A DNA stretch of 64,000 nucleotides. Source: Myxococcota bacterium (GTDB lineage: Bacteria; Myxococcota_A; UBA9160; JAFDDA01). Made by a program: the position numbers and the translations under genes. Positions 14,555 through 24,956 of this stretch are shown here, one piece after another. The DNA lies in contig OZ245817.1 in assembly GCA_965228475.1 (NCBI GenBank), forward strand, positions 1,632,001 through 1,696,000, in the 5' to 3' direction. How positions within the stretch are numbered: position 1 is the stretch's first letter; each line of letters starts with the position of its first letter. Under the pieces are notes generated by a model. The model saw only the letters and a list, made by a program, of their open reading frames with translations. It searched no databases and was not told the DNA's origin.

Positions 14555-14872
14555 ATGGCTGACCTCGCACAGCAGAAGATCCGGATCCGGATGAAGGCGT
14601 ACGACTTCCGGCTGCTCGACCAGAGCGCGTCGGAGATCGTGGATACCGCCATCCGGACGGGCGCCCGGCTCGCCGGCCCCATTCCGCTTCCGACCACGAT
14701 CAACAAGTACACGGTCCTCCGGGGCCCGAACATCGACAAGAAGTCGCGCGAGCAGTTCGAGGTGCGCACGCACCGCCGGCTGATCGACATCCTGGAGCCG
14801 ACCCCGCAGACGGTCGACGCCCTGATGAAGCTCGAGCTCGCCGCCGGTGTCGACGTGGAGATCAAGCTCTAG
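14555..14872 (+). CDS. rpsJ: 30S ribosomal protein uS10
   Basis: [35 protein letters not shown]. Confidence 0.98.
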
Positions 14873-14874
14873 CC

Positions 14875-15528
14875 ATGGCGACCCTCGACGTGAAAACCCT
14901 CGCCGGGAAGAAGAGCGGCACCATCGACCTCGACCCCGTCGTGTTCGAGGCCACGGTGAAGCCGCACCTCTTCCACGCGGAGGTCCGAAGGCAGTTGGCG
15001 GGACGCCGTGCGGGCACCCACGCCACCAAGAATCGCTCGCGCGTTTCGGGCGGCGGTGCCAAGCCGTTCCGGCAGAAGGGCACGGGCCGCGCCCGTGCCG
15101 GTACGACGCGTGCGCCCCAGTGGACGGGCGGCGGCGTCGTGTTCGGCCCGGTGCCGCGCAGCTACGACCACAAGCTTCCGAAGAAGATGCGCCGCGCGGC
15201 CCTCCGCAGCGCCGTCTCGGCACGCGTGGCCGAGCAGGCCGTGACGGTGGTCGACGCACTCGAGCTCGAAGCGGCCAAGACCCGCGAGCTCGTGGCGAAG
15301 CTCGGCGCCCTGGACCTCGCCGAGCGCTCGGTGCTGATCGTGATCGCCGAGGCCGACGAGAAGGTCGAGCGCGCTTCCCGGAACCTGCCGAACGTCGGTG
15401 CGATTCGCGCCGACGGCCTCAACGTCTACGACGTCCTGCGCCACGAGCATCTGCTCATGACCCAGGCCGGCGCCGAGGCGGTGGCCCGGCGGCTCGGCGA
15501 CTCCGCCGAGGAAGGGGCTGCATCGTGA
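14875..15528 (+). CDS. rplD: 50S ribosomal protein uL4
   Basis: [43 protein letters not shown]. Confidence 0.97.
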
Positions 15529-18854: not shown

Positions 18855-19223
18855 ATGATCCAAGCAGAGTCGACGCTTCAGGTCGCCGACAACTCCGGTG
18901 CCCGCAAGCTCTCCTGCATCAAGGTGCTGGGTGGCTCGAAGCGCAAGTACGCCTCGATCGGCGACATCGTGGTCGTCTCCGTCAAGGAGGCGATCCCGAA
19001 CGCTCGCGTGAAGAAGGGTGAGGTGCGCAAGGCCGTGGTCGTGCGGACGGCGAAGGGGATCGGTCGCGCCGACGGCTCGATCATCCGCTTCGACGACAAC
19101 GCCGCTGTCCTGATCGACAACCAGCGCGAGCCCGTCGGGACGCGCATCTTCGGCCCCGTCGCTCGCGAGCTCCGTGGGCGCCGCTTCATGAAGATCATTT
19201 CGCTCGCGCCGGAGGTCCTGTGA
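18855..19223 (+). CDS. rplN: 50S ribosomal protein uL14
   Basis: [45 protein letters not shown]. Confidence 0.99.
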
Positions 19224-19765
19224 TGGTCCCCCGTCTGCTCGAACGCTACCGCGGCGACACCACCGGCAAGCTCCGCGAGGAGTTCGGCTACGCGAACCCG
19301 CACCAGGTGCCGCGCCTCGACAAGATCGTGGTGAACATGGGTCTCGGTGAGGCCGTCGCCAACCCGAAGATCATCGAGCGCGCCGTCGAGGAGCTGGCCG
19401 AGATCACGGGCCAGAAGCCCGTCGTTCGCCGCGCTCGCAAGTCGATCGCCAACTTCAAGCTCCGCCAGGGGCAGGCGATCGGGGCGTCGGTGACGCTGCG
19501 CGGCGTCCGCATGTGGGAGTTCTACGACCGCCTCGTCAGCACCGCGCTGCCGCGCGTGCGGGACTTCCAGGGCGTCTCCCCGAAGGCCTTCGACGGCCGA
19601 GGCAACTACACCCTCGGGGTTCGTGAGCAGATCATCTTCCCCGAAGTGGACTACGACAAGGTCGAGCGGATCACCGGCCTGAACGTGACGGTGTGCACGA
19701 CGGCCCGGACGGACAACGAGGCGCGGGCGCTGCTCGCCCACCTCGGAATGCCGTTCCGGAACTAG
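19223..19765 (+). CDS. rplE: 50S ribosomal protein uL5
   Basis: [38 protein letters not shown] overlap with rplN (in-frame GTG at 19220 is an alternative start). Confidence 0.97.
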
Positions 19766-19812
19766 GCCGCCGAGATCACCCGCGAGAACGACCTGCGAGA
19801 AGGAACGAAGCC

Positions 19813-24939: not shown

Positions 24940-24956
24940 TCGGGAAGGGGAGAGAC

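Follow-up and report, generated by a model that had tools for sequence, protein, structure and literature searches.

Displacement of rplC from the S10 operon across a Myxococcota lineage and its pairing with an rlmE gene probably translated from near-cognate start codons

The canonical S10 operon carries rplC between rpsJ and rplD, and the ribosomal cluster of the Myxococcota genome analysed here resembles it closely: the same genes follow one another from tuf and rpsJ through rplQ, tightly spaced and with ATG or GTG starts. However, the order rpsJ-rplC-rplD is absent from this genome, and rplC, rplX and rpsN are each placed elsewhere. The gene that follows the displaced rplC belongs with the 2'-O-methyltransferase RlmE/RrmJ/FtsJ, with which it shares a K-D-K-E tetrad and the best family matches. 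Unlike the known enzyme, it scores under the equivalog cut-off, its gene is placed behind rplC, and its annotated form is shortened.

Two described systems are close to the probable start of this gene. The infC gene, which encodes IF3, is autoregulated through a non-canonical start codon. Like infC, rlmE is a translation-related gene whose start lies outside ATG, GTG and TTG and is kept so over a wide lineage. However, rlmE has eight such codons, no SD, a dependence on the distance from the upstream stop, and ATG or TTG when detached; moreover, its product is a predicted rRNA methylase, for which feedback is hypothetical. The second system is termination-reinitiation coupling, in which, in the part of PMC10666635 available, the downstream start lies between -8 and +10 nt from the preceding stop, 4-nt overlaps included, a spacing that about half of the attached rplC-rlmE pairs share. 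Coupling usually serves balanced subunits with canonical starts, whereas a near-cognate codon here would give strongly unequal output.

The window, meaning the whole stretch of 64,000 nucleotides that was analysed, corresponds to G000:C1:1632001-1696000 and lies inside a single 5.0 Mb contig. The initial annotation had stated that the rpsJ stop and the rplD start leave no room for rplC, and the same letters were found: TAG at 14870-14872, CC next, and the rplD ATG at 14875 (Table 1). Both products, uS10 and uL4, are above their NCBIfam cut-offs in a profile search. The arrangement recurs throughout the order, with rplD directly 3' of rpsJ and no uL3 at the locus in 30/30 rpsJ loci (that of this genome and those of 29 relatives, out of the 52 of 61 order genomes with a match). 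The contig contains no N, and the junction sequence is single in the genome. Assembled contigs of the public runs X1, X2 and X3, any of which could have supplied the assembly and which were compared as contigs rather than raw reads, bridge the junction with 0 differences and with no joints listed; a contig of a near relative (X4) does so with 2 differences in 495 letters. The joining of rpsJ to rplD is genuine, and the missing rplC at this junction is an old, lineage-wide relocation. That an assembly error took rplC out of the S10 operon, as the initial annotation implied, or that the gene was truly lost, which it rightly held to be implausible, is vanishingly improbable. Nothing beyond the rarity of the gene order speaks for artefact or loss; both are ruled out by an intact rplC elsewhere, the bridging contigs, the same join in 29 relatives and the separation of rplC from rpsJ and rplD in 60/60 loci of the order.

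Table 1. Positions of the rpsJ-rplD junction, the displaced genes and the slots that they have left (plain numbers refer to the window)
Feature	Position	Strand	Remarks
rpsJ (uS10)	14555..14872	+	105 aa; 50 nt 3' of tuf
Spacer in usual rplC slot	14873..14874	+	2 nt (CC), between rpsJ and rplD
rplD (uL4)	14875..15528	+	217 aa; ATG start
rplN-rplE junction	19220..19225	+	1-nt overlap; rplX (uL24) absent
rplE-rpsH spacer	19766..19812	+	without rpsN
Relocated rplX	G000:C1:1403110 (L311 1492-1989)		before rpmG and a ferredoxin gene
rpsN, long (non-type-Z)	G000:C1:159.6 kb (L312 1236-1800)		101 aa; with type B rpmE
rplC (uL3)	G000:C1:4950846-4951490		outside the window, 3.3 Mb away; rlmE next
rlmE (predicted 23S U2552 methylase)	G000:C1, probable ACG start 4951509, end 4952105		ACG 18 nt 3' of rplC stop

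Searches of the genome for uL3, by HMM and by the tBLASTn that the initial annotation had proposed, gave one match each, full-length and outside the window; being the sole copy, this rplC is taken as the functional gene. The product scores 246 bits against TIGR03625 (cut-off 142.9) and covers profile positions 2-202 of 202. Across the phylum, rplC has moved in 36 of 40 loci, picked at one to three per family from 128 phylum matches, and four families retain the operon order; in distant control loci, rplD lies beside rplC in 72 of 75. The displaced gene starts with GTG and has a sigma-70-type site 100 nt upstream (1 found, 0.0 expected), the -35 hexamer of which overlaps the first codons of a divergent gene in this genome. 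A similar promoter-like site precedes 41 of 107 class rplC genes, against 0.3 in shuffled sequence, and none of the 25 rplC upstream regions of the sister order (0/25). An SD core lies 5' of rplC in 104/107 class loci, and rplC starts are canonical in 108/110, which provides a control for the rlmE starts discussed below. In two genomes, G008 and G023 (L089, L083), the expected start position of rplC itself holds a non-canonical ATT or CTT, and rlmE there has CTG.

The moved copies of uL3 also differ in sequence. An H-E-x-x-R-H loop is present in 35 of 36 moved phylum loci and 43 of 59 order loci and in 0/76 operon-bound loci, and a quick uL3 tree sets the operon-bound copies apart (support 91, unstarred). 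A single clade for all phylum uL3 copies is not rejected (p-AU 0.43, with two Bdellovibrionota rows left out). The moved rplC may stem from relocation or from replacement by a foreign copy. In two records titled Bdellovibrionota (L105, L106), rplC lies away from rpsJ and rplD and its product has the loop motif as in the moved copies.

The pairing of rplC with rlmE is itself widespread. rlmE lies 3' of rplC in 56/60 order loci and in the sister order; in other classes, 8 of 37 loci show the pair. Additionally, a record titled Opitutales (L102) holds an rplC-rlmE pair at 65% identity, possibly on a mis-binned contig. Only one RlmE is encoded in the genome, the other strong FtsJ-domain match resembling TlyA by eye. 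The best NCBIfam families of the product are by far TIGR00438 and NF008390, although its scores fall short of equivalog level (168.5 bits for a cut-off of 300.15, and 129 bits for one of 269). The K-D-K-E residues, the catalytic tetrad of RlmE, are conserved across the class (K, D and K each in 133/133 sequences, E in 132/133). Furthermore, rlmE has a dN/dS of 0.28 against G001, of the same genus, which indicates purifying selection, and contigs of X1 and X2 span rplC-rlmE with no difference. Because the gene is under purifying selection and its catalytic residues are kept across the class, it is most likely functional and translated. The protein collection entry is a 164-aa, GTG-started RlmE without the first catalytic Lys; this downstream GTG was rejected as the start, since it would remove the conserved N-terminus including that Lys. 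RlmE proteins shortened in this way by gene callers may be missed or judged broken in many genomes.

In this genome, rlmE shares the reading frame of rplC, from which a TAG stop separates it, and no ATG, GTG or TTG precedes the conserved N-terminus. The start position, defined by alignment as codons -1 to -4 before a conserved Tyr, was compared in 134 class genomes (70 genera, 13 families) drawn from the order sample and part of the 149 class matches. Rows dropped in the analysis are those of three sister-order genomes that lack the anchor motif, whose codons are ACG, ACG and GTG, as well as G262 (a fusion), G211 (no candidate codon) and G057 (truncated and absent from the trees). A canonical codon (ATG, GTG or TTG) occupies the position in 55 genomes and one of eight near-cognate codons in 78, with none in 1; the near-cognate codons are ACG (35), CTG (13), GTC (12), ATC (5), GTT (5), GCG (4), ATT (3) and ATA (1). 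These 78 genomes represent 47 of the 70 genera and all 13 families, and ACG is the start in 23/25 sister-order genomes. Codons one mismatch from ATG (ACG, CTG, ATC, ATT, ATA) are found in 57 of the 79 non-canonical cases, against 3-15 in ten control windows. Those one letter from GTG (GTC, GTT, GCG) account for 21 genomes, within the 8-29 of 79 seen in the controls and so not enriched; such starts are putative, assigned from position and next residue. Moreover, Thr at -2/-3 is encoded by ACG in 35 of 36 cases, compared with 168 of 449 Thr codons (37%) inside the gene, and the residue after the start is Ala, Ser or Pro in 73/78 near-cognate and 46/55 canonical genomes. As controls, rplD begins with ATG or an overlapping GTG in 29/30 junctions, and ATG or GTG also begins the tightly packed genes of the ribosomal cluster in the window. 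Canonical in-frame codons further 5' exist in 27 of the 78 non-canonical genomes; all fall within rplC at scattered sites, and they were rejected as a conserved start.

The identity of the start codon follows its distance from the rplC stop. With the limits of -8 to +10 nt taken from the available part of PMC10666635, near-cognate codons make up 58 of 59 starts inside this range (34 genera), 7 of 14 at 11-20 nt and 12 of 42 beyond 20 nt, where they occur up to 111 nt away. No near-cognate codon is found in the 15 rlmE genes detached from rplC, all of which are canonical (0/15); these come from three genera only, and 12 of them are defined by the lack of rplC in 1.0-1.6 kb upstream. Exceptions are three canonical starts, two in overlaps at -14 and -20 and the third at +5. 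Among the near-cognate starts, three overlap the rplC stop by 4 nt, and in G075 (family f26) CTG lies immediately 3' of that stop. An SD core accompanies 7 of 58 close near-cognate starts, 7 of 12 distant ones and 122 of 670 background positions, counts that are uncorrected for kinship. Among 10 independent pairs on the uL3+RlmE tree, 5.7 differ in the predicted way, 0.2 in the opposite way and 4.1 show no difference (median p 0.031, with values of 0.016-0.375 depending on the pairing); with a tree of RlmE alone, median p is 0.06-0.38 at four thresholds. Within genera, codon switches run as predicted in g8, g14 and g43, and G222 in g25 runs opposite. Of the attached pairs, 59 of 117 occupy the -8 to +10 nt range. 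The present genome, with ACG at +18 nt and without SD, falls in an uncertain distance band for reinitiation: distances of this kind are described as a gene-dependent range in what is available of PMC10666635.

The reading that we favour, at a probability of roughly 65%, is that rplC left the S10 operon and forms a separate pair with rlmE, and that rlmE is translated weakly from a near-cognate codon by reinitiation after uL3. The two genes would share a strong mRNA. Each ribosome takes up one uL3, whereas RlmE acts as a catalyst, and a weak start codon would turn RlmE down to catalytic amounts on this ribosomal-protein mRNA. Ribosomes that end uL3 would reinitiate at the weak rlmE codon (ACG here), and inside the reinitiation range of the rplC stop such a codon would suffice without SD. 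With a longer spacer or a detached gene, a canonical codon would be expected, and in a smaller number of cases a near-cognate one with a better SD. The 12 distant near-cognate starts, 7 of them with an SD core, and the just borderline outcome of the tree-aware tests would also fit de novo initiation at a weak codon, independent of rplC termination, with the link between spacer and codon reflecting shared ancestry. This is unlikely, however, given that pairs in the opposite direction are near zero in every test, that close near-cognate starts are mostly without SD, and that the genus-level switches, G222 excepted, go as reinitiation predicts. Much less probable again is that ribosomes read through the rplC stop and make RlmE fused to uL3. 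The shared frame in this genome would permit it, and in G262 (L295) uL3 and RlmE form a single open frame with no stop, whether as a true fusion or through a sequence error. As a general rule, however, read-through was rejected, since the two frames agree in just 28 of 118 attached pairs, with same-genus G001 out of frame, and the rplC stops are TAG in 89, TGA in 19 and TAA in 10.

A regulatory role for the codon is conceivable, if doubtful: the near-cognate start may act as a sensor, as in infC, such that weak IF3 proofreading or immature ribosomes raise RlmE when 50S maturation lags. In this genome, infC lacks a canonical start 3' of its SD, with ATC or CTG likely instead (L310, G000:C1 ~2442.4 kb), and ACG is kept in nearly all sister-order genomes. 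According to the available parts of the respective papers, raised IF3 inhibits non-canonical initiation and SD-less reinitiation, both of which are combined here (PMC2268962), 30S assembly defects relax start-codon checks (PMC6868393), and efficient 50S assembly needs RlmE (PMC11194073). The restraint by IF3 together with the role of RlmE in 50S assembly makes a feedback role possible. However, PMC6868393 backs 30S defects only, its available text contains neither rrmJ nor "50S assembly", and no connection between the loss of RlmE and relaxed initiation was found there. Furthermore, at least 55 of 134 genomes have canonical starts, so the trait is readily given up. Tentatively, rplC-rlmE could be regarded as a 50S-biogenesis module with its origin in the S10 operon, whose RlmE dose would be set by IF3 activity or ribosome maturity through SD-less near-cognate reinitiation.

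In the literature searched (full text, with subscription journals mostly missing), nothing was found on rpsJ-rplD joins, on rplC-rlmE or on non-canonical rlmE starts, and the main text of PMC8046335, as far as available, does not mention rplC. The supplements of gene-order surveys may already contain the rplC relocation. The rpsJ-rplD gap is an explained lineage trait, and the codon series and its link with the spacer appear new, building on known mechanisms. Suspicion of an assembly fault is removed for the rpsJ-rplD join, and a textbook gene order proves to be broken across most of the phylum, which is relevant to methods that use the ribosomal-protein block. The rlmE starts also constitute a natural experiment that bears on the extent to which a poor start codon can be rescued by reinitiation. 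If the sensor reading were true, rlmE would be a second class-wide case of start-codon feedback after infC, with eight codons set against spacer length.

Further gaps are present in the ribosomal cluster. uL3 and uL24, the product of rplX, are the two 50S assembly-initiator proteins. rplN is joined to rplE in 8/8 same-order genomes; rplX lies beside rplN in both sister-order genomes and, with one exception, in the remaining phylum genomes that gave matches. Because the rplX slot is kept outside the order, the rplX move would be a later, order-level event. infA is absent between map and rpmJ (window 24940-24956). The usual place of rpsN is empty in 7 of 8 same-order loci. The uS8 and bL33 matches are rough, having been obtained with out-of-frame queries. 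The long rpsN and the type B rpmE found together elsewhere in the genome suggest replacement by zinc-independent forms.
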